Part shown: positions 1 through 40,648 of the stretch, one piece after another | Numbering within the stretch: the first letter of the stretch is position 1 | Layout of the letters: every line of letters starts with the position of its first letter | NCBI RefSeq assembly: GCF_055900595.2 | Contig: NZ_CM148325.1 | Length of the DNA: 64,000 bases | Strand: one strand, 5' to 3' | The notes under the pieces: generated by a model | Database searches by the model: none | What the model was told of the DNA's origin: nothing | The model's input: the letters and a program-made list of their open reading frames with translations, nothing else | Position numbers and translations under genes: made by a program

Positions 1-270
1 ATCATGCATAATGAAATCGTCATGTTATTTGGCGATATAAAAAAGTCTTTGAAAATACTCTCTACAACAAGTGCAGTTATAAGCTTGTTGTGACTGAGCG
101 TCCTTGTGATTTAAAGATATTATCGTTCTTCATCAGATGTAATAACTCAGGAAATTATATTTTCAGGGTGACAGGCTAATCAAGAATGATTCTTTTTTAT
201 AAACAATAACCGAATGACTGAATTGTTATATTTCTTTATTCAGCTGCTTAAATATAAACTTTGGAGAATT

Positions 271-834
271 ATGAAACTCAAACATGTCGGAATGATTGTC
301 GTTTCTGTGTTGGCGATGTCTTCGGCTGCGGTTAACGCAGCCGAAGGTGATGAGTCAGTTGCGACCACCGTAAATGGCGGTGTTATTCATTTTAAAGGTG
401 AAGTGGTAAATGCCGCTTGTGCGATTGACTCAGAATCAATGAACCAAACGGTTGAGCTGGGTCAGGTCCGTTCTTCTCGCCTGGCTAAAGCGGGTGACCT
501 CAGTAGCGCTGTAGGCTTCAATATCAAGCTGAATGATTGTGATACCAATGTTTCCAGTAATGCGGCTGTTGCATTCCTTGGGACTACTGTCACCAGTAAT
601 GACGATACGTTGGCGCTTCAGAGTTCAGCAGCAGGCTCTGCCCAGAATGTCGGTATCCAAATTTTGGACCGTACGGGGGAGGTATTAATACTGGATGGGG
701 CAACTTTTAGCGCTAAAACTGACTTGATTGATGGCACGAATATACTGCCATTCCAGGCTCGTTATATTGCCCTCGGGCAGTCAGTGGCCGGTACTGCAAA
801 TGCAGATGCGACCTTCAAAGTCCAATACCTATAA
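271..834 (+). CDS. Fimbrial major subunit of an F9/Fml-type chaperone-usher pilus
   Basis: ORF 214-834; preferred ATG at 271 follows GGAG and gives signal peptide [23 protein letters not shown]; fimbrin-like size and C-terminal aromatic-rich strand; first gene of a six-gene fimbrial cluster. Confidence 0.8.
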
Positions 835-1194
835 TTCAGTATTCAGGTGGCTATACGTCATCTGAAATTAAAACAGGGTGTGTGTGGCATGGCTACTCAC
901 ACCCGAAAAAATTCATCAATATTTATCTCATTATTACTAAGGAATGACTTATATTTTGGAACGATATGAAAAAATCATAGAGTATCTAAACGATTAATAA
1001 ACAAGACAGTTAAATTTACTGTGATTTTAAAAATCACTTTGAAGACAATTTTTATTTCAATAGAGAACCAAATTTTATTACCAGCGCATTAAGTCTGGAA
1101 ACCCGGCCATCCGCCATAGCATTAGCAATATTTACCATTTTCTGATGTGACGGTTTCCCCCGCTTAGCCTATCAACACATGGAGAACACATCAG

Positions 1195-1905
1195 ATGCAG
1201 ACGACTCGTACGCCCTACTCTGTTTCTTTTATGGCGACAGTATTACTTTCATTGATCTTTCTTTGCCATAGTACCATTGCCAATGCAGCGGTAGCTCTAG
1301 GTGCAACTCGTGTAATCTTTCCAGCAAATCAGAAACAGGTTCTATTGCCTGTCACGAATAATGATCCTGCCAGTGTCTATCTTATTCAGTCATGGATAGA
1401 AAATGCGGGTGACCAAAAAGATACCCAGTTTGTCATTACCCCACCGCTTTTTTCGATGCAAGGCAAAAAAGAGAATACGCTGCGGATTATCAACGCCACT
1501 AATCATCAGTTACCGAGCGACCGGGAAAGCCTGTTTTGGGTAAATGTCAAAGCTATTCCTGCTATGGAAAAAGATCAGAAAAATGCAAATACATTACAGC
1601 TGGCAATTATTAGCCGCATAAAAATGTTCTATCGCCCAACGAATTTGGCAATGGCACCTGACCAAGCTCCGGAAATGCTTCGTTTCCGCCGCAGTGGTAG
1701 CAAACTGACACTTATTAATCCGACCCCCTACTTCATTACCGTAACGAATATGAAAGCAGGAAATAGCGATCTCCCAAACACCATGGTGCCTCCAAAAGGT
1801 GAGATTTCTGTGGATTTCCCTCACGGTGCATCCGGGGATATCAGCTTTCAGACGATCAATGATTACGGTGCATTAACACCGCGTATTAAGGCAACCATGC
1901 AGTAA
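1195..1905 (+). CDS. Periplasmic fimbrial chaperone (FimC/PapD-like)
   Basis: 236 aa ORF with signal peptide and a chaperone-like N-terminal domain (…RVIFPANQKQVLLPVTNND…); sits between subunit and usher genes. Confidence 0.85.
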   Translation: MQTTRTPYSVSFMATVLLSLIFLCHSTIANAAVALGATRVIFPANQKQVLLPVTNNDPASVYLIQSWIENAGDQKDTQFVITPPLFSMQGKKENTLRIINATNHQLPSDRESLFWVNVKAIPAMEKDQKNANTLQLAIISRIKMFYRPTNLAMAPDQAPEMLRFRRSGSKLTLINPTPYFITVTNMKAGNSDLPNTMVPPKGEISVDFPHGASGDISFQTINDYGALTPRIKATMQ

Positions 1906-1948
1906 CAACTGACCTAATTAATAAGCATAAACTCAATCGGAACTAATA

Positions 1949-4600
1949 ATGACAGCCTTTCGTGCCGCATTTAAGGCATATCGTATGCATCATGTGTTAC
2001 TACTGCCTCGCTTTGCACGGCTTACCTTTGCCCTTGGCTTAGCTACAGCGATTTTTCCCGTAGAAGCAGAGTATTATTTTAATCCACGGTTTTTAAGCAA
2101 TGATCTTGCTGAGTCTGTTGATTTATCTGCCTTTGCTAAGGGACGCGAGGCACCACCTGGTACATATCGGGTCGATATTTATTTGAACGACGAATTTATG
2201 ACCACTCGGGATGTTACTTTTGTTGCAGATGATAATAACGCAGATCTCACCCCATGTCTGAGTACAGACCTTCTTGTCAGTCTTGGCATAAAAAAATCAG
2301 CGTTATTAGCCAATAAGGGCCATTTGGCAGGAAAAAATGTGCCGGATAACAACGCATGTACACCACTTCAGGATCGTTTGGCCGACGCATCTACTGATTT
2401 TGATGTTGGTCAGCAACATCTGTCGCTCTCCGTTCCACAGATTTATGTCGGTAGAATGGCCCGTGGTTATGTCTCTCCTGACCTGTGGGAAGAAGGAATA
2501 AACGCAGGCCTACTGAACTATAGTTTTAATGGTAATTCTATCAACAATCGTAGTAACCATAACGCCAGCAAAACCAACTATGCATATCTGAATTTGCAGA
2601 GTGGCATAAACATTGGCAGCTGGCGACTACGTGATAACTCAACGTGGAGTTATAACAGTGGGAGTAACAACCCATCTGACAGCAATAAATGGCAACATAT
2701 CAATACGTCTGCTGAACGTGACATTATTCCCTTACGCTCACGGTTAACGGTGGGTGATAGTTATACCGATGGCGATATTTTTGAAAGTGTGAACTTTCGT
2801 GGCCTTAAAATAAACTCAACGGAAGCGATGTTGCCCGATAGCCAACATGGTTTTGCTCCGGTGATTCATGGTATAGCCCGTGGCACAGCCCAAGTCAGTG
2901 TTAAACAGAACGGATACGATGTTTATCAGACTACGGTCCCTCCCGGCCCGTTTACTATTGATGATATTAACTCTGCGGCTAATGGCGGTGATCTGCAAGT
3001 TACGATAAAAGAGGCAGACGGCAGTATTCAGACTTTATATGTCCCTTATTCATCTGTCCCGGTTCTCCAACGTGTTGGTTATACGCGTTATGCACTTGCC
3101 TTGGGAGAATATCGTAGTGGAAATAACCTGCAAAGCTCCCCAAAATTCATTCAGGGCAGCGTAATGCATGGTCTGGAGGGAAACTGGACACCTTATGGCG
3201 GGATGCAAATTGCAGAAGATTATCAAGCTTTCAACGTGGGTATTGGTAAAGATCTTGGCCTTTTAGGTGCCTTTTCTGTCGATATCACGCAAGCCAATAC
3301 GACACTTGCGGATGATACTCGTCACAGCGGACAATCGGTAAAATCTGTTTACAGTAAATCTTTCTATCAGACGGGAACGAATATCCAGGTCGCAGGATAT
3401 CGATATTCTACGCAAGGATTTTATAACTTATCTGACAGTGCATACAGTCGAATGAGTGGTTACACCGTCAAGCCTCCGACCGGAGACACCAATGAACAGA
3501 TACAATTTATTGATTATTTTAATCTGTACTATAGTAAGCGTGGTCAGGAACAAATAAGTATTTCTCAGCAGCTTGGAAATTACGGTACGACCTTTTTCAG
3601 TGCCAGTCGCCAAAGTTACTGGAACACGTCACGCAGCGATCAGCAAATATCATTCGGGTTAAATGTACCGTTTGGCGATATTACGACTTCGCTGAATTAC
3701 AGCTATTCCAGTAATATATGGCAAAACGATCGGGATCATTTACTCGCTTTTACACTTAATGTTCCCTTCAGTCATTGGATGCGTACAGACAGTCAGTCGG
3801 CATTTCGTAATTCAAACGCTAGTTATAGCATGTCAAACGATTTGAAAGGCGGTATGACCAATCTATCTGGGGTTTATGGCACACTGCTGCCGGATAATAA
3901 CCTGAATTATAGTGTTCAGGTCGGTAATACCCGCGGAGGTAATGCATCATCTGGCACCAGTGGTTACAGTTCTCTTAATTATCGAGGGGCTTACGGTAAT
4001 ACTAATGTCGGTTACAGTCGTAATGGAGATAGCAACCAGTTTTACTACGGAATGAGTGGTGGAATTATTGCTCATGCTGATGGTGTCACCTTTGGACAGC
4101 CGATGGGTGACACTATGGTTCTGGTTAAGGCTCCTGGCGCGGAGAATGTTAAAATAGAGAACCAGACAGGAATACATACAGACTGGCGTGGCTATGCAAT
4201 ATTACCATTTGCGACAGAATATAGAGAAAATCGTGTCGCTCTTAACGCTAATTCCCTTGCCGATAATGTTGAACTGGATGAAACCGTGGTTACGGTCATC
4301 CCTACTCATGGTGCTATTGCCAGAGCAACATTTAATGCACAAATCGGCGGTAAAGTATTAATGACTCTGAAATACGGCAATAAACCAGTTCCATTCGGTG
4401 CAATTGTGACTCACGGTGACAATAACAATGGCAGCATTGTTGCTGAAAATGGTCAGGTCTATCTGACAGGACTTCCACAATCAGGAAAATTACAGGTTTC
4501 ATGGGGCAACAATGCAAACGCTAAATGTATTGTTAATTACAAGCTTCCTGAAGTCTCTCCTGGGAACTTACTGAGTCAGCAAACAGCAGTCTGTCGCTAA
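1949..4600 (+). CDS. ydeT: Fimbrial outer-membrane usher (FimD/PapC family), full length
   Basis: Uninterrupted 883 aa ORF of typical usher length; position matches ydeT, which I recall as truncated in K-12. Confidence 0.85.
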   Translation: MTAFRAAFKAYRMHHVLLLPRFARLTFALGLATAIFPVEAEYYFNPRFLSNDLAESVDLSAFAKGREAPPGTYRVDIYLNDEFMTTRDVTFVADDNNADLTPCLSTDLLVSLGIKKSALLANKGHLAGKNVPDNNACTPLQDRLADASTDFDVGQQHLSLSVPQIYVGRMARGYVSPDLWEEGINAGLLNYSFNGNSINNRSNHNASKTNYAYLNLQSGINIGSWRLRDNSTWSYNSGSNNPSDSNKWQHINTSAERDIIPLRSRLTVGDSYTDGDIFESVNFRGLKINSTEAMLPDSQHGFAPVIHGIARGTAQVSVKQNGYDVYQTTVPPGPFTIDDINSAANGGDLQVTIKEADGSIQTLYVPYSSVPVLQRVGYTRYALALGEYRSGNNLQSSPKFIQGSVMHGLEGNWTPYGGMQIAEDYQAFNVGIGKDLGLLGAFSVDITQANTTLADDTRHSGQSVKSVYSKSFYQTGTNIQVAGYRYSTQGFYNLSDSAYSRMSGYTVKPPTGDTNEQIQFIDYFNLYYSKRGQEQISISQQLGNYGTTFFSASRQSYWNTSRSDQQISFGLNVPFGDITTSLNYSYSSNIWQNDRDHLLAFTLNVPFSHWMRTDSQSAFRNSNASYSMSNDLKGGMTNLSGVYGTLLPDNNLNYSVQVGNTRGGNASSGTSGYSSLNYRGAYGNTNVGYSRNGDSNQFYYGMSGGIIAHADGVTFGQPMGDTMVLVKAPGAENVKIENQTGIHTDWRGYAILPFATEYRENRVALNANSLADNVELDETVVTVIPTHGAIARATFNAQIGGKVLMTLKYGNKPVPFGAIVTHGDNNNGSIVAENGQVYLTGLPQSGKLQVSWGNNANAKCIVNYKLPEVSPGNLLSQQTAVCR

Positions 4601-4613
4601 GGAACACTAGATT

Positions 4614-5144
4614 ATGAAACACAATAGCATTATTTTCCTCAGTTTATGTCTGGGGTTAACCACCTATTCTGCTTTATCTGCAGATAGCGTTATTAAAATT
4701 AGCGGGCGCGTCCTGGATTATGGCTGCACAGTTTCATCTGATTCGCTTAATTTTACCGTAGACCTACAAAAACACAGTGCCAGGCAATTCCCAACGACTG
4801 GAAGCACAAGTCCAACCGTTCCTTTCCAGATTACGTTAAGTGAATGTAGCAAAGGGACTACGGGGGTTCGGGTTGCATTTAGCGGGATAGAGGATTTAGA
4901 AAATAATACTCTGCTGAAACTGGATGAAGGAAGCAATTCTGCTTCCGGTTTGGGTATTGAAATTCTGGACGGAAATATGCGCCCAGTAAAAATAAATGAC
5001 CTTCATACCGGAATGCAGTGGATCCCTCTGACTCCTGATCAGGATAATATTTTGCCTTACTCGGCCCGTTTGAAGTCAACACAAAAGTCCGTCAATCCAG
5101 GACTGGTTAGCGCTTCGGCAACATTTACCCTTGAATTTCAATAA
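4614..5144 (+). CDS. ydeS: Fimbrial minor subunit
   Basis: 176 aa ORF with signal peptide and fimbrin-like Cys pair, immediately after the usher gene. Confidence 0.8.
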   Translation: MKHNSIIFLSLCLGLTTYSALSADSVIKISGRVLDYGCTVSSDSLNFTVDLQKHSARQFPTTGSTSPTVPFQITLSECSKGTTGVRVAFSGIEDLENNTLLKLDEGSNSASGLGIEILDGNMRPVKINDLHTGMQWIPLTPDQDNILPYSARLKSTQKSVNPGLVSASATFTLEFQ

Positions 5145-5156
5145 TCAGAGTCAGAT

Positions 5157-5660
5157 ATGAATAGAACTTTCCAAAGACTTCTGTTGGCTACGCTCTGTGC
5201 GCTATTTTCAGCAACGCTTCAGGCCGCTGATGTCACTATCACTGTTAATGGTCGGGTAGTTGCTAAACCCTGCACTATTCAAACCAAAGAGGCTAGCGTT
5301 AATCTCGGGGATCTTTATACACGCAATCTGCAACAACCTGGTTCTGCATCTGGCTGGCACAATATTACTTTATCATTAACCGATTGTCCGATTGAAACAA
5401 GTGCAGTGACGGCAATCGTAACAGGTTCAACTGACAATACGGGTTATTACAAAAATGAAGGTAGTGCAGAAAATATTCAAATAGAGCTGAGGGATGATCA
5501 GGAGGCGACGTTAAAAAGTGGCGATAGCAAAACGGTTATTGTTGATGAGATCACACGTAATGCACAGTTTCCACTTAAGGCAAGAGCTATCACGGTGAAT
5601 GGAAACGCAAGCCAGGGAACGATCGAGGCGCTAATCAATGTGATCTATACCTGGCAATAA
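5157..5660 (+). CDS. ydeR: Fimbrial minor subunit
   Basis: 167 aa ORF with signal peptide (…ATLQAADVT…) and fimbrin-like fold signature; 12 nt spacing from the upstream gene. Confidence 0.8.
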   Translation: MNRTFQRLLLATLCALFSATLQAADVTITVNGRVVAKPCTIQTKEASVNLGDLYTRNLQQPGSASGWHNITLSLTDCPIETSAVTAIVTGSTDNTGYYKNEGSAENIQIELRDDQEATLKSGDSKTVIVDEITRNAQFPLKARAITVNGNASQGTIEALINVIYTWQ

Positions 5661-5718
5661 CATCGATTCGATTTTATAAGCCTCTTTTTTAAATCAATTT
5701 TTAACCTAAGGATTTATC

Positions 5719-6633
5719 ATGGGAAAAAAAATTAGTATAAATGTCCTGTTCAGTATTTATTTTCTTTTGATGGCAGGTAAAGTCTTCGCCTTCAGTTGTA
5801 ATGTTGATGGTGGGTCAAGTATTGGCGCAGGTACAACTTCTGTGTATGTTAATCTCGATCCTGTCATTCAACCAGGTCAGAATCTGGTTGTAGATTTGTC
5901 TCAGCATATAAGTTGCTGGAATGATTACGGCGGCTGGTACGACACAGATCATATTAACTTAGTACAAGGCTCAGCTTTCGCAGGCTCCCTACAGTCATAT
6001 AAAGGATCGCTGTACTGGAATAATGTGACCTACCCCTTTCCGTTGACGACAAATACCAACGTGCTGGATATTGGTGATAAGACACCGATGCCCTTACCGT
6101 TAAAACTCTATATTACCCCTGTCGGGGCGGCCGGTGGCGTTGTCATAAACGCGGGAGAAGTTATTGCTCGCATTCATATGTATAAAATTGCAACGTTAGG
6201 AAGTGGAAATCCGCGTAACTTTACATGGAATATTATTTCAAATAACAGTGTTGTTATGCCAACGGGCGGCTGTACCGTTGATAGTCGTAATGTCACAGTG
6301 AGTCTCCCGGACTTTCCTGGAAGCGCAGAAATACCCCTGGGCGTATATTGCTCAAGTGAGCAAAAGCTCTCATTTTATCTTTCGGGCGCTACCACTGACA
6401 GTGCCCGACAAGTGTTTGCTAATACAGCACCTGACGCAACAAAAGCATCAGGAGTCGGTGTCTCCCTGATGCGTAATGGAAAAATACTGGCTACGGGAGA
6501 AAATGTCTCCCTGGGAACTGTAAATAAAAGCAAAGTACCCCTGGGCTTAAGTGCAACTTATGGACAGACCGGAAGCAAGGTCGCAGCTGGAGCAGTACAG
6601 TCAGTCATTGGCGTTACATTTATCTATGAATAA
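5719..6633 (+). CDS. ydeQ: FimH-like two-domain tip adhesin (FmlH/YdeQ-type)
   Basis: 304 aa ORF; N-terminal lectin-like domain and C-terminal pilin domain colinear with FimH as I recall it (…[20 protein letters not shown]…, …GVTFIYE C-terminus). Confidence 0.85.
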
Positions 6634-6715
6634 TTGTGATGTTGACCCTGTTATACTTTAGGTTGTGCTTTCCATTCACTAAAATTACGCGGATAATTCT
6701 TTCCTGAAAGAAATT

Positions 6716-6733
6716 ATCCTACACCTGTAAGAA
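6716..6733 (+). promoter_or_regulatory. Candidate EvgA box upstream of ydeP
   Basis: ATCCTACA-CC-TGTAAGAA, an 8-2-8 inverted repeat close to the EvgA consensus TTCYTACA-N2-TGTARGAA as I recall it; ydeP is an established EvgA target. Confidence 0.55.
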
Positions 6734-6981
6734 AATCCGCGCACAATTGAAGTCAGAGTCTTATTTTATATATTGAAAAGTATGTTAACTTAAAGACTAT
6801 GAGAGATGATGCTTAACTTATCGCATTTATACTATTCTGTTATGTGACGATAATGAGTTAAAAATAGAATGAGAGTAGCCCCCTACTCTCATATATCCAA
6901 ATGGCCGATAAACCCATTATATATACTGCGCATCATCGCTATTACAAATCCTAATAATTCATTTCCACACAGGATAAGCTG

Positions 6982-9261
6982 ATGAAGAAAAAAATTGAAT
7001 CCTACCAGGGAGCTGCCGGTGGTTGGGGGGCTGTCAAATCTGTAGCGAATGCAGTCCGTAAGCAGATGGATATACGCCAGGAAGTGATTGCCATGTTTGA
7101 CATGAATAAGCCAGAAGGCTTTGACTGTCCAGGATGTGCATGGCCAGATCCTAAGCACAGCGCGTCATTCGACATTTGTGAAAACGGCGCAAAAGCAATC
7201 GCCTGGGAAGTCACCGATAAGCAGGTGAATGCCTCTTTTTTCGCTGAGAATACGGTTCAATCATTACTTACCTGGGGAGATCACGAACTCGAGGCTGCGG
7301 GGCGTCTCACTCAACCTTTGAAATATGATGCCGTCAGCGACTGTTACCAGCCATTAAGCTGGCAACAAGCTTTCGACGAAATTGGCGCACGTCTTCAAAG
7401 TTATAGTGATCCAAATCAGGTTGAATTCTATACTTCGGGTCGCACTTCCAATGAAGCTGCCTTTCTTTATCAGCTTTTTGCCCGTGAATACGGTACCAAT
7501 AACTTTCCCGACTGCTCAAACATGTGCCATGAACCGACCAGCGTAGGTTTGGCTGCGAGTATCGGCGTGGGTAAAGGGACCGTGTTACTGGAAGACTTTG
7601 AGAAATGCGATTTAGTCATTTGCATTGGGCATAACCCTGGTACAAACCACCCTCGCATGCTGACTTCGTTGCGCGCTTTAGTGAAACGTGGAGCGAAAAT
7701 GATTGCCATCAATCCTCTGCAGGAGCGTGGCCTGGAGCGATTTACCGCACCACAGAACCCGTTTGAAATGCTGACGAACTCCGAGACTCAATTGGCTAGT
7801 GCTTACTATAATGTGCGCATTGGTGGCGATATGGCGTTGCTAAAGGGGATGATGCGCCTGTTAATTGAGCGCGATGATGCTGCAAGTGCTGCGGGTCGGC
7901 CCTCATTGCTGGATGACGAATTCATTCAAACGCATACCGTCGGCTTTGACGAGCTACGCCGTGACGTTCTCAATTCCGAGTGGAAAGATATCGAACGTAT
8001 TTCTGGACTAAGTCAGACACAAATCGCCGAACTTGCTGATGCATATGCCGCTGCCGAACGAACCATTATCTGTTACGGAATGGGGATCACTCAGCACGAA
8101 CATGGTACACAGAACGTACAGCAACTGATCAATCTGCTGTTGATGAAAGGTAACATTGGCAAGCCTGGTGCGGGTATCTGCCCACTACGTGGTCACTCTA
8201 ATGTACAGGGCGACCGAACCGTCGGTATCACCGAGAAACCGTCTGCAGAGTTTCTGGCTCGCCTGGGTGAGCGCTATGGCTTCACCCCACCTCATGCACC
8301 TGGACATGCTGCAATCGCCAGCATGCAAGCAATATGTACGGGGCAAGCTCGAGCATTGATCTGCATGGGGGGCAACTTTGCACTGGCAATGCCAGATCGG
8401 GAAGCGAGCGCTGTACCGTTAACGCAATTAGATCTGGCGGTACACGTTGCCACAAAGCTTAACCGCTCCCATCTGCTGACCGCACGGCATAGCTATATCC
8501 TGCCGGTTCTGGGACGTAGCGAGATTGACATGCAAAAAAGCGGTGCGCAGGCGGTAACCGTTGAGGATTCAATGTCAATGATTCATGCCTCGCGTGGCGT
8601 GTTAAAACCCGCAGGTGTCATGCTGAAATCAGAGTGTGCTGTGGTCGCGGGAATCGCGCAGGCAGCGCTCCCTCAGAGCGTGGTGGCCTGGGAGCATCTG
8701 GTGGAAGATTATGATCGCATTCGCAATGACATTGAAGCTGTGCTGCCAGAGTTCGCCGACTATAACCAGCGCATCCGCCATCCTGGTGGTTTTCACCTGA
8801 TAAACGCAGCTGCTGAAAGGCGCTGGCTGACGCCGTCAGGTAAGGCTAATTTTATTACCTGTAAAGGGTTGTTAGAAGATCCCTCTTCGGCGTTTAACAG
8901 TAAGCTGGTCATGGCGACAGTGCGCAGTCACGATCAGTACAATACGACGATTTATGGTATGGATGACCGCTATCGAGGGGTATTCGGTCAACGAGATGTG
9001 GTCTTCATGAGTGCTAAACAAGCTAAAGTTTGCGGTGTAAAAAACGGCGAAAGAGTTAATCTTATTGCGCTTACGCCAGACGGTAAGCGCAGCTCACGCC
9101 GCATGGATAGATTAAAAGTGGTCATTTACCCCATGGCTGACCGCTCACTGGTGACCTATTTTCCAGAATCGAATCACATGCTAACACTTGATAACCACGA
9201 TCCATTAAGTGGCATTCCTGGCTATAAAAGTATTCCGGTTGAATTAGAACCATCAAATTAA
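6982..9261 (+). CDS. ydeP: Molybdopterin oxidoreductase, FdhF-like, acid-resistance associated
   Basis: 759 aa ORF beginning [21 protein letters not shown]…, recognised as YdeP; N-terminal Cys cluster (CPGC…C). Confidence 0.9.
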
Positions 9262-9274
9262 TTCGCCTCCTCAT

Positions 9275-9310
9275 TTCTTCTGCTGTCATCCGCACAGCAG
9301 AAGAATTCCT
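9275..9310 (+). terminator. Rho-independent terminator after ydeP
   Basis: Perfect 12-bp stem TTCTTCTGCTGT / ACAGCAGAAGAA with 7-nt loop, followed by a T-rich stretch. Confidence 0.6.
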
Positions 9311-9379
9311 CATTGACCATTGTCGCGCAATTTACTCACATGTGCTAAATTAAACTGCTCGCTATAAGATTTATACCTC

Positions 9380-9397
9380 CGCCTACAGCTGTAAGAA
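9380..9397 (+). promoter_or_regulatory. Candidate EvgA box upstream of safA-ydeO
   Basis: CGCCTACA-GC-TGTAAGAA; shares the core CCTACA-NN-TGTAAGAAA-N-TCCGC with the ydeP upstream site; about 110 bp before the safA ATG. Confidence 0.55.
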
Positions 9398-9508
9398 ACT
9401 CCGCTCAGTACTGAAGCACCAGTCCTATTTCCTCTTTTTTCCAGCCTGTTATATTAAGCATACTGATTAACGATTTTTAACGTTATCCGCTAAATAAACA
9501 TATTTGAA

Positions 9509-9706
9509 ATGCATGCGACCACAGTGAAAAACAAAATCACGCAAAGAGACAACTATAAAGAAATCATGTCTGTAATTGTGGTTGTCTTATTACTGACACT
9601 TACGTTGATAGCCATTTTTTCGGCAATTGATCAGCTGGGTATTACAGAAATGGGTCGCATTGCAAGAGATCTTACACATTTCATTATCAATAGTTTGCAA
9701 GACTGA
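9509..9706 (+). CDS. safA: Small membrane protein SafA, two-component system connector
   Basis: 65 aa ORF MHATTVKNKITQRDNYKEIMSVIVVVLLLTL… with one transmembrane segment; directly upstream of ydeO. Confidence 0.85.
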   Translation: MHATTVKNKITQRDNYKEIMSVIVVVLLLTLTLIAIFSAIDQLGITEMGRIARDLTHFIINSLQD

Positions 9707-9780
9707 AAATAAACAGCAAATTATAAATATGAAATGTTAAAAAAGTATCGATAAAAACTTTATTGTTTTAAGGAGATAAA

Positions 9781-10542
9781 ATGTCGCTCGTTTGTTCTGT
9801 TATATTTATTCATCATGCCTTCAACGCTAACATTTTAGATAAAGATTACGCCTTCTCTGACGGCGAGATCTTGATGGTAGATAACGCTGTTCGTACGCAT
9901 TTTGAACCTTATGAGCGGCATTTTAAAGAAATCGGATTTAATGAAAATACCATTAAAAAATATCTACAATGCACTAACATCCAGACAGTGACGGTGCCTG
10001 TTCCTGCGAAGTTTTTACGTGCTTCAAATGTACCGACTGGATTGCTTAATGAAATGATTGCTTATCTCAACTCGGAAGAACGCAATCATCATAATTTTTC
10101 AGAACTTTTGCTTTTTTCTTGCCTGTCTATTTTTGCCGCATGCAAAGGTTTCATTACACTATTAACTAACGGTGTGCTATCCGTATCAGGGAAAGTGAGA
10201 AACATTGTCAATATGAAGCTGGCACACCCATGGAAACTAAAAGATATTTGTGATTGCCTGTATATTAGTGAAAGCCTGCTGAAGAAAAAACTAAAGCAAG
10301 AGCAAACGACATTCTCACAAATTCTTTTAGATGCCAGAATGCAACACGCAAAAAATTTGATACGCGTAGAAGGTTCAGTCAATAAAATTGCCGAAAAATG
10401 TGGTTATGCCAGTACATCTTATTTTATTTATGCTTTCCGCAAACATTTCGGCAACAGTCCAAAGAGAGTTTCAAAGGAGTACCGTTGTCAAAGGCACACG
10501 AATATGAACACGGGCAACACGATGAATGCTTTGGCTAATTGA
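9781..10542 (+). CDS. ydeO: AraC-family acid-resistance transcriptional regulator
   Basis: 253 aa ORF with C-terminal AraC-type helix-turn-helix (…KIAEKCGYASTSYFIYAFRKHFG…); AT-rich gene. Confidence 0.9.
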   Translation: MSLVCSVIFIHHAFNANILDKDYAFSDGEILMVDNAVRTHFEPYERHFKEIGFNENTIKKYLQCTNIQTVTVPVPAKFLRASNVPTGLLNEMIAYLNSEERNHHNFSELLLFSCLSIFAACKGFITLLTNGVLSVSGKVRNIVNMKLAHPWKLKDICDCLYISESLLKKKLKQEQTTFSQILLDARMQHAKNLIRVEGSVNKIAEKCGYASTSYFIYAFRKHFGNSPKRVSKEYRCQRHTNMNTGNTMNALAN

Positions 10543-10589
10543 TTATTCGCTCACGTATAGTCAACTACAAACGCTAAGTAAGAATTAAA

Positions 10590-10610
10590 GGGGCAGCTAT
10601 TACCTGCCCC
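10590..10610 (+). terminator. Hairpin after ydeO, possible terminator
   Basis: GGGGCAG-ctattac-CTGCCCC stem-loop; the U-tract is on the opposite-strand side, so function is uncertain. Confidence 0.35.
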
Positions 10611-10942
10611 AATCTGTCGTTACGAATTGTATTTCATGATGAGAATTAGTGATATACATCACAAATTTATGCATCTGAATAATCTGTTTCATATTTATTT
10701 ATGATCTCAATGCAATGAATTACAAAAAAAACACATAATACCATTTAATTTCAATCATTTAGTTATTTGGCATTGTGAATTTACCTAGCTCAACAGAAAG
10801 CAATGTCAACGCGTTATGGACTATTATTTCTCTTTTTTTAGCCAAATCTGCTATCTCTTTATGTGACTCACTTCACTTACATCATCTTATTTCTCTTCGT
10901 AAAATTACTTTGGAATTAAGTACAATAAGAAGAGGAACATTT

Positions 10943-12625
10943 ATGAAGTCTGCATTGAAGAAAAGTGTCGTAAGTACCTCGATATCTTTGATACTGGCAT
11001 CTGGTATGGCTGCATTTACCGCTCATGCGGCAGATGATGTAAAGCTGAAAGCAACTAAAACAAACGTTGCTTTCTCAGACTTTACGCCGACTGAATACAG
11101 CACTAAAGGAAAGCCAAATATCATCGTACTGACCATGGATGATCTGGGTTATGGACAACTTCCTTTTGATAAGGGTTCTTTTGACCCAAAAACAATGGAA
11201 AATCGTGAAGTTGTCGATACCTACAAAATAGGGATAGATAAAGCCATTGAAGCTGCATCAAAATCGACGCCAACACTGCTTTCGTTAATGGATGAAGGTG
11301 TACGTTTTACTAACGGCTATGTGGCGCACGGGGTTTCCGGTCCCTCCCGCGCCGCAATAATGACCGGTCGAGCGCCCGCTCGTTTTGGTGTGTACTCCAA
11401 TACTGATGCTCAGGATGGTATTCCGCTGACAGAAACTTTCTTGCCTGAATTATTCCAGAATCATGGTTATTACACTGCAGCAGTAGGTAAATGGCACTTG
11501 TCAAAAATCAGTAATGTGCCAGTACCGGAAGATAAACAAACGCGTGACTATCATGACAACTTCACCACATTTTCTGCGGAAGAATGGCAACCTCAAAACC
11601 GTGGCTTTGATTACTTTATGGGATTCCACGCTGCAGGAACGGCATATTACAACTCCCCTTCACTGTTCAAAAACCGTGAACGCGTCCCCGCAAAAGGTTA
11701 TATCAGCGATCAGTTAACCGATGAGGCAATTGGTGTTGTTGATCGTGCTAAAACACTTGACCAGCCTTTTATGCTTTACCTTGCTTATAATGCTCCGCAT
11801 CTGCCAAATGATAATCCTGCACCGGAGCAATATCAGAAGCAATTTAATACCGGTAGTCAAACAGCAGATAACTACTACGCTTCCGTTTATTCTGTTGATC
11901 AGGGTGTAAAACGCATTCTCGAACAACTAAAGAAAAACGGACAGTATGACAATACAATTATTCTATTTACCTCCGATAATGGTGCAGTTATCGATGGTCC
12001 TCTGCCGCTGAACGGAGCGCAAAAAGGCTATAAGAGCCAGACTTATCCTGGCGGTACCCATACACCAATGTTTATGTGGTGGAAAGGAAAACTTCAGCCC
12101 GGTAATTATGACAAGCTGATTTCCGCAATGGATTTCTACCCGACAGCTCTTGATGCAGCCGATATCAGCATTCCAAAAGAGTTAAAATTGGATGGTGTTT
12201 CATTGCTGCCCTGGTTGCAAGATAAGAAACAAGGTGAGCCACATAAAAATCTGACATGGATAACATCTTATTCTCACTGGTTTGATGAGGAAAATATTCC
12301 CTTCTGGGATAATTACCACAAATTTGTCCGCCATCAGTCAGACGATTACCCGCATAACCCCAACACCGAAGATTTAAGCCAATTCTCTTATACGGTGAGA
12401 AATAACGATTATTCGCTAGTCTATACAGTAGAAAACAATCAGTTAGGTCTATACAAACTGACAGATCTACAGCAAAAAGATAACCTTGCCGCTGCCAATC
12501 CGCAGGTCGTTAAAGAGATGCAAGGTGTGGTAAGAGAGTTTATCGACAACAGCCAGCCACCGCTTAGCGAGGTAAATCAGGCGAAGTTTAACAATATCAA
12601 GAAAGCACTAAGCGAAGCGAAATAA
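10943..12625 (+). CDS. ydeN: Secreted sulfatase (arylsulfatase family)
   Basis: ORF 10775-12625; start chosen at ATG 10943 (MKSALKKSVV… signal peptide). Sulfatase-type active-site region CSPSRAAIMTGR (Cys-type motif) present. Confidence 0.9.
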   Translation: MKSALKKSVVSTSISLILASGMAAFTAHAADDVKLKATKTNVAFSDFTPTEYSTKGKPNIIVLTMDDLGYGQLPFDKGSFDPKTMENREVVDTYKIGIDKAIEAASKSTPTLLSLMDEGVRFTNGYVAHGVSGPSRAAIMTGRAPARFGVYSNTDAQDGIPLTETFLPELFQNHGYYTAAVGKWHLSKISNVPVPEDKQTRDYHDNFTTFSAEEWQPQNRGFDYFMGFHAAGTAYYNSPSLFKNRERVPAKGYISDQLTDEAIGVVDRAKTLDQPFMLYLAYNAPHLPNDNPAPEQYQKQFNTGSQTADNYYASVYSVDQGVKRILEQLKKNGQYDNTIILFTSDNGAVIDGPLPLNGAQKGYKSQTYPGGTHTPMFMWWKGKLQPGNYDKLISAMDFYPTALDAADISIPKELKLDGVSLLPWLQDKKQGEPHKNLTWITSYSHWFDEENIPFWDNYHKFVRHQSDDYPHNPNTEDLSQFSYTVRNNDYSLVYTVENNQLGLYKLTDLQQKDNLAAANPQVVKEMQGVVREFIDNSQPPLSEVNQAKFNNIKKALSEAK

Positions 12626-12637
12626 CTAAACCTTCAT

Positions 12638-12662
12638 GCGGCGGATTTTTCCGCCGCCTTAT
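12638..12662 (+). terminator. Rho-independent terminator after ydeN
   Basis: GCGGCGG-attttt-CCGCCGC followed by CTTATT. Confidence 0.55.
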
Positions 12663-12676
12663 TGAGCGAGATAGCG

Positions 12677-13837
12677 ATGCACGTTACAGCCAAGCCCTCC
12701 AGTTTTCAATGTAATCTCAAATGTGATTACTGTTTTTACCTTGAAAAAGAGTCGCAGTTTACTCATGAAAAATGGATGGATGACAGCACTCTGAAAGAGT
12801 TCATCAAACAATATATCGCAGCGTCTGGCAATCAGGTCTATTTTACCTGGCAAGGCGGTGAACCCACTCTGGCTGGCCTGGATTTTTTCCGTAAAGTTAT
12901 TCACTATCAACAACGCTATGCAGGCCAAAAACGTATTTTTAATGCATTACAAACGAATGGCATTTTATTGAATAATGAATGGTGTGCCTTTCTCAAAGAA
13001 CATGAGTTTCTGGTTGGTATCTCGATCGATGGACCCCAGGAGCTACATGACTATTACAGACGCAGTAATTCAGGTAACGGTACTTTTGCAAAAGTGATAG
13101 CAGCCATCGAGCGTCTGAAATCATATCAAGTAGAGTTTAATACGTTAACCGTCATTAATAACGTTAATGTCCATTACCCTCTTGAGGTTTATCATTTTTT
13201 AAAATCTATCGGCAGTAAACATATGCAATTTATCGAATTGCTCGAAACCGGGACGCCGAATATTGATTTCAGTGGTCATAGTGAGAACACATTCCGTATC
13301 ATTGATTTTTCTGTGCCTCCTACGGCTTATGGCAAGTTTATGTCAACCATTTTTATGCAATGGGTTAAAAACGATGTGGGTGAAATTTTCATCCGTCAGT
13401 TTGAAAGCTTTGTCAGCCGTTTTTTGGGGAATGGGCATACCAGCTGTATTTTCCAGGAGTCCTGCAAGGATAATCTGGTTGTTGAAAGTAATGGAGACAT
13501 TTACGAATGCGACCATTTTGTCTATCCACAGTACAAAATTGGAAACATTAATAAATCTGAACTCAAAACGATGAATAGTGTTCAACTGACAGCGCAAAAA
13601 AAACGGATTTCAGCGAAATGTCAGCAATGTGCATATAAACCTATCTGCAATGGTGGTTGCCCTAAACATCGTATTACTAAAGTAAACAATGAAACTGTTT
13701 CCTATTTTTGCGAAGGTTATAAAATCCTTTTTTCAACCATGGTGCCTTATATGAACGCCATGGTGGAGTTAGCTAAGAACAGAGTTCCACTTTACCACAT
13801 TATGGATGTTGCAAAACAAATGGAGAATAATAAATAA
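12677..13837 (+). CDS. ydeM: Radical-SAM anaerobic sulfatase-maturating enzyme
   Basis: ORF 12662-13837; start at ATG 12677 ([19 protein letters not shown]…). CxxxCxxC radical-SAM motif near the N-terminus plus C-terminal Cys clusters; adjacent to the sulfatase. Confidence 0.9.
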
Positions 13838-37796: not shown

Positions 37797-39494
37797 ATGG
37801 AACCAAAAACAAAAAAACAGCGTTCGCTTTATATTCCTTACGCTGGCCCTGTACTGCTGGAATTTCCCTTGTTGAATAAAGGCAGCGCCTTCAGCATGGA
37901 AGAACGCCGTAACTTCAACCTGCTGGGGTTACTGCCGGAAGTGGTCGAAACCATCGAAGAACAAGCGGAACGCGCATGGATCCAGTATCAGGGATTCAAA
38001 ACCGAAATCGACAAGCACATCTACCTGCGTAACATCCAGGACACTAACGAAACCCTCTTCTACCGTCTGGTAAACAATCATCTTGATGAGATGATGCCTG
38101 TTATTTATACCCCAACCGTCGGCGCAGCCTGTGAGCGTTTTTCTGAGATCTACCGCCGTTCACGCGGCGTGTTTATCTCTTACCAGAACCGCCACAATAT
38201 GGACGATATTCTGCAAAACGTACCGAACCATAATATTAAAGTGATTGTGGTGACGGACGGCGAACGTATTCTGGGGCTTGGTGACCAGGGCATCGGTGGG
38301 ATGGGTATTCCGATCGGTAAACTGTCGCTCTATACCGCCTGCGGTGGCATAAGCCCGGCGTATACACTGCCGGTGGTGCTGGATGTCGGGACGAACAACC
38401 AGCAGTTGCTTAACGATCCGCTGTATATGGGCTGGCGTAATCCACGTATCACTGACGACGAATACTATGAATTCGTGGATGAATTTATCCAGGCTGTGAA
38501 ACAACGCTGGCCGGACGTGCTGTTGCAGTTTGAAGACTTCGCACAAAAAAATGCGATGCCGTTGCTTAACCGCTATCGCAATGAAATTTGTTCTTTTAAC
38601 GATGATATTCAGGGCACCGCGGCGGTAACAGTCGGCACACTGATCGCAGCCAGCCGTGCGGCGGGCGGTCAGTTAAGCGAGAAAAAAATCGTCTTCCTCG
38701 GCGCAGGTTCAGCAGGATGCGGCATTGCGGAGATGATCATCGCCCAGACCCAGCGTGAAGGATTAAGCGAAGAAGCGGCGCGGCAGAAAGTCTTTATGGT
38801 CGATCGCTTTGGTCTGCTCACCGACAAGATGCCGAATCTGCTGCCTTTTCAGACCAAACTGGTGCAGAAGCGCGAAAATCTCAGTGACTGGGATACTGAC
38901 AGCGATGTGCTGTCATTGCTTGATGTGGTGCGCAATGTCAAACCGGATATTCTGATTGGCGTCTCAGGACAGACCGGGCTGTTTACGGAAGAGATCATCC
39001 GTGAGATGCATAAATACTGTCCGCGTCCGATCGTGATGCCGCTGTCTAACCCGACTTCACGCGTGGAAGCCACACCTCAGGACATTATCGCCTGGACTGA
39101 AGGTAACGCGCTGGTCGCCACCGGCAGTCCGTTTAATCCGGTGGTATGGAAAGATAAAATCTACCCTATCGCGCAATGCAACAACGCTTTTATCTTCCCG
39201 GGCATTGGGCTGGGCGTTATTGCTTCCGGCGCGTCACGTATCACCGATGAGATGCTGATGTCAGCAAGCGAAACACTTGCTCAGTATTCGCCGCTGGTCC
39301 TGAACGGCGAAGGTCTGGTATTACCGGAACTGAAAGATATTCAGAAAGTCTCCCGCGCAATTGCGTTTGCGGTTGGCAAAATGGCGCAGCAGCAAGGTGT
39401 GGCGGTGAAAACGTCTGCCGAAGCTCTGCAACAGGCCATTGATGATAACTTCTGGCAAGCCGAATACCGCGACTACCGCCGTACATCCATCTAA
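37797..39494 (+). CDS. maeA: NAD-dependent malic enzyme
   Basis: ORF 37770-39494; start at ATG 37797 ([23 protein letters not shown]…); Rossmann motif [10 protein letters not shown]. Confidence 0.95.
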
Positions 39495-39501
39495 GCCAGC
39501 G

Positions 39502-39535
39502 CCCGGTAGTGACTGCTACCGGGCAATTTTCCTCT
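39502..39535 (+). terminator. Rho-independent terminator after maeA
   Basis: CCCGGTAG-tgactg-CTACCGGG followed by a T-rich tract. Confidence 0.6.
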
Positions 39536-39628
39536 TCCTTTTTCAGATCTCATCCATACTGGGTAGTGGCGAATAAATCTCATTTGCCTCACCTGCTATG
39601 CAGAACATCATCCGAAAAGGAGGAAACT

Positions 39629-40639
39629 ATGAAGGCTGCAGTTGTTACGAAGGATCATCATGTTGACGTTACGGATAAAACACTGCGCTCACTGAAACAT
39701 GGCGAAGCCCTGCTGAAAATGGAGTGTTGTGGCGTATGTCATACCGATCTTCATGTTAAGAATGGCGATTTTGGTGATAAAACCGGCGTAATTCTGGGAC
39801 ACGAAGGTATTGGTGTGGTGGCAGAAGTTGGCCCTGGTGTAACTTCATTAAAACCAGGCGATCGTGCCAGTGTGGCGTGGTTTTACGAAGGTTGCGGTCA
39901 TTGCGAATACTGTAACAGCGGCAACGAAACGCTGTGCCGTTCAGTAAAAAATGCCGGATACAGCGTTGATGGCGGTATGGCGGAAGAGTGCATCGTGGTC
40001 GCCGATTACGCAGTTAAAGTGCCGGATGGCCTGGACTCCGCGGCGGCTAGCAGCATTACCTGCGCGGGTGTCACCACCTACAAAGCAGTAAAACTGTCAA
40101 AAATTCGTCCAGGACAGTGGATTGCTATCTACGGTCTTGGCGGTCTGGGCAACCTCGCCCTGCAATATGCGAAAAATGTCTTTAATGCCAAAGTGATCGC
40201 CATTGATGTCAATGATGAGCAGTTGAAACTGGCAACCGAAATGGGTGCAGATTTAGCGATTAACTCACGCACCGAAGACGCCGCCAAAATTGTGCAGGAG
40301 AAAACTGGTGGCGCTCACGCTGCGGTGGTAACAGCGGTAGCTAAAGCTGCGTTTAACTCGGCAGTTGATGCTGTCCGTGCTGGCGGTCGTGTTGTGGCAG
40401 TCGGTCTGCCGCCGGAGTCTATGAGCCTGGATATCCCACGGCTGGTGCTGGATGGTATTGAAGTGGTCGGTTCGCTGGTTGGCACGCGCCAGGATCTCAC
40501 CGAAGCCTTCCAGTTTGCCGCCGAAGGCAAAGTGGTGCCGAAAGTCGCCCTGCGTCCGTTAGCGGACATCAACACCATCTTTACTGAGATGGAAGAAGGC
40601 AAAATCCGTGGCCGTATGGTGATTGATTTCCGCCGCTAA
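39629..40639 (+). CDS. adhP: Zinc-dependent alcohol dehydrogenase, propanol-preferring
   Basis: ORF 39509-40639; start at ATG 39629 after AAGGAGG ([17 protein letters not shown]…); GHEGIG zinc motif and GLGGLGNLA Rossmann motif. Confidence 0.95.
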
Positions 40640-40648
40640 GAGGCCTTT

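Follow-up and report, generated by a model that had tools for sequence, protein, structure and literature searches.

Described F9 and type 1 fimbrial systems

F9 (Fml) pili are established colonisation factors of Escherichia coli: they serve O157:H7 in the calf gut, and CFT073 in chronic cystitis and infection of the kidney. In the strains studied they are silent under standard laboratory conditions. Their adhesin, FmlH, is both a vaccine target and a glycomimetic drug target. Work on F9 of CFT073 has described an operon of six genes, its binding by H-NS, F9 expression at 20 °C and the specificity for glycans, and has mapped the f9 promoter by 5'-RACE to a -35 hexamer TAGTCG, an 18-bp spacer and a -10 hexamer CATAAT (PMC3966885). 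H-NS motifs have been reported within the CFT073 leader region, and H-NS represses the CFT073 f9 promoter (PMC3966885). The binding of FmlH to the TF and Tn antigens and the pocket have also been described, in a study whose in vivo infections used CFT073, only the crystallised domain being from UTI89 (PMC5866590).

F9 is a paralogue of the type 1 fimbriae (fimAICDFGH), which likewise comprise FimA-, FimC-, FimD-, FimF- and FimG-like proteins and a two-domain adhesin of the FimH fold, and the donor strands and the chaperone Arg8/Lys112 motifs are common to both systems. They differ in that a 360-bp non-coding gap occupies the fimI position in F9, and in the pocket of the adhesin, which is a mannose pocket in type 1 FimH but in F9 the wide FmlH pocket for galactosides. 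In K-12, a remnant, ydeT-ydeS-ydeR-ydeQ, occupies the F9 locus; it includes intact copies of ydeS, ydeR and ydeQ, and it has kept the promoter along with the leader's first ~74 nt. The usher N-terminal half, the chaperone and the major subunit are missing, which leaves K-12 incapable of pilus assembly.

Identity and genomic setting of the operon

The DNA analysed here, referred to as the window, is a stretch of 64,000 nucleotides from strain E200086, a member of cryptic clade I. Positions 1-6633 of the window very probably carry the cryptic clade I allele of a chromosomal E. coli operon for chaperone-usher fimbriae, F9 (Fml, Yde). Six co-directional genes, with zero internal stops in the open reading frame list, occupy 271-6633 in the order FimA-like major subunit, FimC-like chaperone, usher, FimF-like ydeS, FimG-like ydeR and adhesin ydeQ/FmlH, and are separated by spacers of 360, 43, 13, 12 and 58 bp. 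The operon lies between the hipA/hipBA side and ydeP-safA-ydeO, as it does in the RefSeq annotation of K-12, O157:H7 and UTI89. A collinear DNA match of 90% identity extends over 3-6899 to O157:H7 and to many other genomes, the E200086 proteins being 92-99% identical to those of the O157:H7 and UTI89 operons. Thus, synteny, the identity of about 90% in DNA and 92-99% in protein, and an adhesin lectin domain identical to that of FmlH at 159 of 160 residues together establish the assignment to F9/Fml, as proposed in the initial annotation.

The E200086 operon shares its gene order, its ydeP-adjacent site and its gene lengths with F9 of CFT073 (c1931-c1936) and O157:H7, the lengths of all six genes being those in O157:H7. 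The UTI89 operon is disrupted. The initial annotation had also described the K-12 locus as truncated with ydeT as a usher fragment, and this is borne out, as a 3.3-kb deletion corresponding to window positions 93-3373 has removed most of the leader, both the major subunit and chaperone genes and approximately the first 475 usher codons, and has reduced ydeT to a pseudogene for the C-terminal piece of the usher. The operon was further described as complete, which holds for the structural genes, all of which lie inside the window, but not for the promoter region, since the -35 hexamer and everything 5' of it precede window base 1.

The E200086 allele is nevertheless distinct from other E. coli F9 alleles, being ~90% identical to them in DNA as against ~96% for the flanking core genes, and its synonymous divergence is twice that of the flanking genes. 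The stretch between hipA and the operon, upstream, also differs in content from that of known F9 loci.

Major subunit, chaperone, usher and minor subunits

All six genes lie on the plus strand. The FimA-like major subunit (187 aa; 271-834) is 98-99% identical to its O157 and UTI89 counterparts; its mechanical open reading frame starts at 214, whereas the signal peptide and the RefSeq start place the initiation codon at 271. The FimC-like periplasmic chaperone (236 aa; 1195-1905), assigned by family match, retains the subunit-anchoring motifs GATRVI (Arg8) and NVKAIP (Lys112), as in FimC. The outer-membrane usher (883 aa; 1949-4600) is uninterrupted and full length, with PapC_N, Usher barrel and PapC_C domains and an NCBIfam match at an E-value of 1.6e-296; it has the same length as the O157:H7 usher and is 93.5% identical to it. 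The minor subunits are YdeS, a FimF-like adaptor (176 aa; 4614-5144), and YdeR, a FimG-like tip subunit (167 aa; 5157-5660), both assigned by family match and RefSeq. Alignments to FimA, FimF and FimG span the subunits from end to end and take in the N-terminal donor strands, and the donor strand of YdeR, ADVTITVNGRVVAKPC, is near-identical to that of FimG. Protein divergence from E. coli sensu stricto amounts to 6-8% for the chaperone, usher and minor subunits. The description of six in-frame, co-directional genes with short spacers and an unbroken usher is thus confirmed by open reading frames devoid of internal stops and by full-length family and domain matches.

The adhesin and its receptor-binding domain

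The last gene, ydeQ/fmlH (5719-6633, plus strand), encodes a two-domain adhesin of 304 aa with matches to the Pfam families FimH_man-bind and Fimbrial, and comprises a signal peptide (1-24), a lectin domain (25-184) and a pilin domain (185-304). The lectin fold expected of a FimH-like adhesin is supported by these matches and by comparison of the sequence with the crystallised lectin domain of UTI89 FmlH (PDB 6AOW), to which 159 of 160 residues are identical. The sole change, K120N, falls outside the binding loops (10-15, 44-53 and 132-142), and the galactoside-pocket residues F1, Y46, D53, K132, N140 and R142 are all retained. The dN/dS of the lectin domain is 0.007, with 33-35 synonymous changes against 1 non-synonymous change. 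A receptor-binding domain this close to invariant, with one residue in 160 altered against ~34 synonymous changes, supports FmlH as a conserved target.

When the back-translated FmlH loop-2 motif was sought by exact matching in 100,044 species representatives, the one hit was a mis-binned MAG contig consisting of E. coli DNA. An E. coli-specific distribution of F9 would fit this result, but the evidence is weak, given that the scan overlooked even the representative of E. coli and is blind to diverged homologues.

Promoter and leader

Alignment to UTI89, O157, K-12 and the published CFT073 promoter places the -10 hexamer of the f9 promoter, CATAAT, at 7-12 on the plus strand of the window. The -35 hexamer TAGACG, which differs in one base from the CFT073 TAGTCG, lies outside the window, 24-19 bp ahead of its first base (L001 7983-7988), and is separated from the -10 hexamer by an 18-bp spacer; the -10 hexamer, the spacer length and the transcription start are common to E200086 and CFT073. 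The putative start is the G at 19, which aligns with position 3017 of the UTI89 locus (L004), 251 nt before the UTI89 ATG, and is followed by an AT-rich 5' leader of 252 nt (19-270, plus strand; 30% GC). These placements are projections of the CFT073 5'-RACE map onto E200086 by alignment.

The initial annotation had described a 270-bp AT-rich upstream region typical of silenced, phase-regulated fimbrial promoters. The region is indeed AT-rich, but because the CFT073 promoter maps to the window edge, with transcription starting at 19, it would consist mostly of transcribed leader and not of sequence 5' of the promoter. That the promoter is silenced is plausible and in line with the repression by H-NS published for the f9 promoter in CFT073 (PMC3966885); phase regulation is not borne out, as discussed below.

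The gap between the major subunit and chaperone genes

A gap of 360 bp (835-1194, plus strand) separates the major subunit and chaperone genes, as initially annotated. It is non-coding and AT-rich, with 35% GC, and its length is kept in other alleles (360 bp in O157 and 361 bp in UTI89). Decay of a fimI-like gene does not account for the gap, as tblastn with the four subunits gave only E > 1 and stops occur throughout all frames. A search of 1-7100 against Rfam found no RNA family at E ≤ 1.

Two hairpins (842-866 and 876-904, plus strand) lie just 3' of the major-subunit stop and form a candidate mRNA-stabilising or attenuating element. The region 842-904 folds with -32.5 kcal/mol (z = -6.2), a stability equalled in none of 200 shuffled sequences, and the second hairpin is almost unchanged among three alleles that are ~10% apart, the evidence from covariation being thin with just two allele groups to compare. 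As to intrinsic terminators after the major subunit gene or after ydeQ, no U-tract follows the hairpins at 842-904, and towards the 3' end of the operon the one strong terminator-like site (6869-6892) scores on the minus strand. A role of the hairpins in mRNA stability or attenuation is inferred by analogy, and they would probably act by increasing the ratio of the major subunit to the assembly proteins.

The divergence of the allele, with its changed -35 base and K120N, and the hairpins also suggest a more novel reading. Perhaps clade I F9 differs from the studied operons in regulation, at the temperature/H-NS set point, or in pilus antigenicity, while receptor specificity is frozen, and, separately, the double hairpin is an element for processing or attenuation, as yet undescribed, by which the stoichiometry of the subunits is set. 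We consider this reading improbable.

Function, selection and distribution

A mechanism for the E200086 pilus can be proposed from work on F9 of CFT073 and O157:H7 and from the Fim paradigm. Transcription would start at base 19 from a sigma-70 promoter at the left edge of the window, and H-NS would bind and silence the 252-nt AT-rich leader at 37 °C, with relief when the temperature is low (about 20 °C). In the periplasm, the FimC-like chaperone would take up the subunits, and the 883-aa usher would build the rod of major subunits by donor-strand exchange, capped by a tip fibrillum of YdeS (FimF-like), YdeR (FimG-like) and YdeQ/FmlH. The lectin domain of FmlH would then engage terminal galactosides, viz., Gal-beta1-3-GalNAc (TF antigen), the Tn antigen and Gal-beta1-3-GlcNAc.

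The operon of E200086 looks functional, because its gene lengths match those of O157:H7 and its genes are under purifying selection, with dN/dS values of 0.03-0.20 for all six. The suggestion of the initial annotation that the strain likely makes the pilus is therefore a reasonable one at the level of sequence.

It is conceivable that the operon is intact in sequence yet cryptic and dead, never expressed in this lineage and heading for the state of decay seen in K-12, in UTI89 and in about one-third of E. coli. Roughly this fraction of complete genomes falls short of 80% coverage of the locus, with deletions and IS insertions being common, and Wurpel et al. found 40% of operons disrupted and silencing by H-NS at 37 °C (PMC3966885). 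However, strong purifying selection on six genes across a dS of 0.2-0.5, with a dN/dS of 0.007 in the lectin domain, is unexpected for unexpressed genes, and the promoter hexamers, the spacer and the transcription start are conserved. Moreover, this allele is found as an uninterrupted single-piece match in 17 of 18 genomes, the remaining genome, RMDEC465, having an IS66 insertion. A dead operon thus appears very improbable, and a functional F9 operon is the preferred reading.

At least 80% of the F9 locus is present in 3,597 of 5,426 complete E. coli genomes. Copies close to full length occur in 66% of complete genomes, contrary to the rarity of an intact locus implied by the initial annotation. 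The intact F9 operon of E200086 is therefore a correct and ordinary finding of an already known system. Its presence in cryptic clade I means that both sides of the deepest divide in E. coli sensu lato have retained the pilus; beyond correct annotation its importance is small, and it raises no new question.

Phase variation and relationship to the fim operon

Type 1 fimbriae, the close paralogues of F9, have an invertible switch, and an 11-bp perfect inverted repeat (L001 7989-7999 and 8196-8206) flanks the -10 hexamer, the transcription start and most of the leader in E200086. The operon might accordingly be phase-variable through a fimS-like invertible promoter or through a pap-like Dam/Lrp methylation switch. 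However, no recombinase gene adjoins the operon, the repeat is AT-rich with just ~7-8 bp common to the O157 and UTI89 alleles, and the published control of F9 is by H-NS and temperature (PMC3966885). A synthetic inverted form of the common allele matched none of 4,973 genomes across both junctions, and an invertible promoter is rejected; Dam/Lrp switching is likewise rejected, as there is no GATC from 1 kb upstream to window position 1200 (L001 7001-8271; window 1-1200). We therefore regard phase variation by either route as extremely unlikely.

Finally, although the NCBIfam equivalog models for FimA, FimF and FimG exceed their cut-offs for three of the proteins and the RefSeq names fimA, fimF and fimG follow these models, the locus is certainly not the type 1 operon itself, a reading that synteny and the adhesin's identity already refute: the models for FimC, usher and FimD fall below their cut-offs, fimB, fimE, fimS and fimI are absent, the locus adjoins ydeP and not the fim site, and the adhesin, which has the galactoside pocket, is 99% identical to FmlH, scoring 359 bits against the 160-aa FmlH lectin domain alone as compared with 273 bits against FimH over 304 aa.

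Identity and integrity of the operon

An ORF scan of the window reveals six uninterrupted reading frames, all in one direction (plus strand), viz., those of the major subunit (214/271-834; 187 aa counted from 271), the chaperone (1195-1905; 236 aa), the usher (1949-4600; 883 aa), ydeS (4614-5144; 176 aa), ydeR (5157-5660; 167 aa) and ydeQ (5719-6633; 304 aa), with intergenic spacers of 360, 43, 13, 12 and 58 bp in gene order. The first gene starts at 271 in RefSeq, which is also where its signal peptide begins. Full-length NCBIfam matches to the FimA, FimC, usher, FimF and FimG families (E 5e-51 to 2e-296), together with the Pfam domains PapC_N, Usher and PapC_C in the 883-aa usher and FimH_man-bind and Fimbrial in the 304-aa ydeQ product, bear out the initial annotation of six in-frame, co-directional fimbrial genes with an intact usher.

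The window is 100% identical to the chromosome of E. coli E200086 from 2586507 onward, where variable sequence downstream of hipA lies on one side of the operon and ydeP-safA-ydeO-ydeN-ydeM on the other; the F9 genes have the same neighbourhood in K-12, O157:H7 and UTI89. Thousands of E. coli genomes carry an F9 operon to which it aligns collinearly, at ~90% DNA identity, and the six O157:H7 proteins are exactly equal in length to those of E200086, with identities of 92-99%. The locus is the F9 operon of Wurpel et al. (PMC3966885). The core of the initial annotation is accurate, and the operon is well characterised, widespread and already annotated in RefSeq.

NCBIfam 'equivalog' models exceed their curated cut-offs on the F9 paralogues at 271-834 (FimA, 173 against 140), 4614-5144 (FimF, 234 against 200) and 5157-5660 (FimG, 250 against 220), as a result of which RefSeq names these genes fimA, fimF and fimG in many genomes; these labels are a systematic paralogue mis-naming. 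The hipA-to-F9 interval upstream of the window (1255-7815 of L001, the source-genome DNA reaching beyond window base 1) varies in content by strain, and here harbors genes for a Xre/MbcA-type antitoxin, a 522-aa hypothetical protein and a 657-aa ankyrin-repeat protein, along with fragments of HTH, IS481 transposase and alpha/beta-hydrolase genes. Variability of the immediate 5' region of F9 has likewise been described by Wurpel et al. (PMC3966885).

Disrupted forms of the locus

BLAST aligns the window to the K-12 locus as 3-92 and 3374-12898, two segments that are directly adjacent in K-12, indicating that K-12 lacks window 93-3373, i.e., most of the leader, the major subunit, the chaperone and ~475 usher codons. 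The rest of the usher is annotated in RefSeq as the ydeT pseudogene, "missing N-terminus", so that the truncation named in the initial annotation, with ydeT as an usher fragment, is confirmed. Microhomology at the deletion junction is 1-2 bp at most. Other disrupted forms include IS1 and IS2 insertions and the UTI89 record (NZ_CP062985.1, L004 4945-6760), in which a ~1.9 kb internal deletion removes ydeS and joins the usher, truncated at ~codon 506, to the C-terminal third of ydeR. The UTI89 operon was also counted as disrupted by Wurpel et al. (PMC3966885); the crystallised FmlH domain is from UTI89, but the published mouse work used CFT073 (PMC5866590).

Adhesin and selection on the assembly genes

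The lectin domain fold, whose absence from the adhesin the initial annotation named as telling against its reading, is present in YdeQ: residues 25-184 are identical at 159 of 160 positions to crystallised UTI89 FmlH (PDB identifier 6AOW and ten further entries), the sole change being K120N. The FmlH binding loops (residues 10-15, 44-53 and 132-142) and ligand-contacting residues (F1, D53, K132, N140, Y46 and R142; PMC5866590) are all unchanged in E200086. Compared with UTI89 and O157:H7, the lectin domain shows 33-35 synonymous differences and only one non-synonymous difference (dN/dS 0.007).

Pairwise Nei-Gojobori estimates against O157:H7, K-12 and UTI89, with underlying dS of 0.2-0.5, gave dN/dS values of 0.03-0.05 for the major subunit, 0.07 for the chaperone, 0.09 for the usher, 0.10 for ydeS, 0.19-0.20 for ydeR and 0.03-0.05 for ydeQ. 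The chaperone retains the FimC motifs GATRVI (Arg8) and NVKAIP (Lys112), whose Arg and Lys residues anchor the subunit C-terminus in PapD/FimC chaperones. Each of the three pilins can be aligned over its whole length, N-terminal donor strand included, with its counterpart among FimA, FimF and FimG; YdeR, for instance, has ADVTITVNGRVVAKPC at the place of ADVTITVNGKVVAKPC in FimG. As judged from sequence, this selection and these kept motifs are the pattern of a maintained, working assembly system.

Promoter and leader

In CFT073, f9 transcription starts at a G lying 251 nt before the start codon, from a promoter with -10 CATAAT, -35 TAGTCG and an 18-bp spacer (PMC3966885). Aligning the E200086 upstream DNA with that of UTI89, O157 and K-12 places the -10 hexamer at window 7-12, the start site at window 19 and the -35 hexamer (TAGACG, one mismatch) at L001 7983-7988, before window base 1, all on the plus strand; the left window edge splits the promoter in two. 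This mapping is validated by UTI89, whose hexamers and spacer are exactly those published for CFT073. The 270 bp of AT-rich upstream sequence in the initial annotation are therefore essentially the transcribed leader (252 nt, 30% GC).

That annotation had proposed a silenced, phase-regulated promoter. Silencing agrees with the findings in CFT073, where H-NS binds directly, an hns mutation lifts repression and expression occurs at 20 C (PMC3966885). Phase regulation was not borne out: the source-genome annotation has no recombinase gene near the operon, and no GATC site occurs from 1 kb upstream to position 1200. A perfect 11-bp inverted repeat (TTGTTTATAAA / TTTATAAACAA; L001 7989-7999 and 8196-8206, window -11 to -1 and 196-206) encloses the -10, the start site and most of the leader; other alleles have in common with it just a core of 7-8 bp. 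An invertible promoter was rejected, as a synthetic query in which the repeat-flanked segment was inverted gave no match across the junctions in any of 4,973 genomes.

Intergenic regions

The 360-bp gap between the major subunit and the chaperone is conserved in length in O157 and UTI89, has 35% GC and stops in every frame, and contains no fimbrial-subunit similarity and no Rfam family. Directly 3' of the major-subunit stop codon are two hairpins (842-866 and 876-904, plus strand; fold -32.5 kcal/mol, z = -6.2) with no U-tract 3' of them, the second being almost invariant across alleles ~10% apart. By analogy with the stem-loops downstream of papA and fimA, we infer that they may stabilise or partly terminate the major-subunit transcript. 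No clear plus-strand intrinsic terminator was found 3' of ydeQ; a perfect palindrome with a 10-bp stem (ATGAGAGTAGCCCCCTACTCTCAT) in the ydeQ-ydeP intergenic region (6869-6892) has a terminator score on the minus strand only.

Distribution and lineage

The F9 locus is matched in part by 5,355 of 5,426 complete E. coli genomes, and at least 80% of it lies in one place in 3,597 (66%); Wurpel et al. reported it intact in 60% of 42 genomes, and in 61-80% by PCR (PMC3966885). E200086, from a control child (Mali, 2008), belongs to cryptic clade I (OND:H45, ST485; PMC13064198). Identity across F9 (1-6900) is sharply bimodal, with 18 genomes at 99.1-100%, among them 2013C-4282 and EC42405, both known to be clade I, and a best value of 90.3% for all others. 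Housekeeping maeA-adhP (37799-40640), unlike F9, grades smoothly from 100% to ~96%, with only 8 genomes at 99% or above and most E. coli at ~96% or less, consistent with the literature, which puts ANI between clade I and E. coli sensu stricto above 95.9% (PMC10100065). The dS of the F9 genes is mostly 0.3-0.5 (0.22 for ydeR), about twice the value for ydeP/ydeO (0.15-0.20). Since F9 dS also exceeds that of ydeP within sensu stricto, by up to ~1.6-fold and not in every pair, part of this excess may reflect a faster synonymous rate at an AT-rich locus.

Contig JARKOR010000108.1 (13,117 bp), filed as 'MAG: Candidatus Nanosynbacter sp.', carries ydeR-ydeQ-ydeP-ydeO-ydeN with a YdeQ identical to that of K-12; the contig is E. 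coli DNA that was wrongly binned into a Saccharibacteria MAG.

Other features of the window

The ydeO-ydeN intergenic region (10500-10800) has ~74% identity to K-12, against 93-98% on either side. The yddG-narU interval (47403-51244) holds an intact porin gene (annotated ompC, 366 aa) and genes for a 419-aa hypothetical and a 416-aa leucine-rich-repeat protein, at a site which in K-12 we take to hold the yddL/yddK/yddJ remnants. At the right window end (62523-63602, minus strand) are an orphan Rhs C-terminal fragment, a small 'putative toxin' gene and a SUKH-4 family immunity gene.
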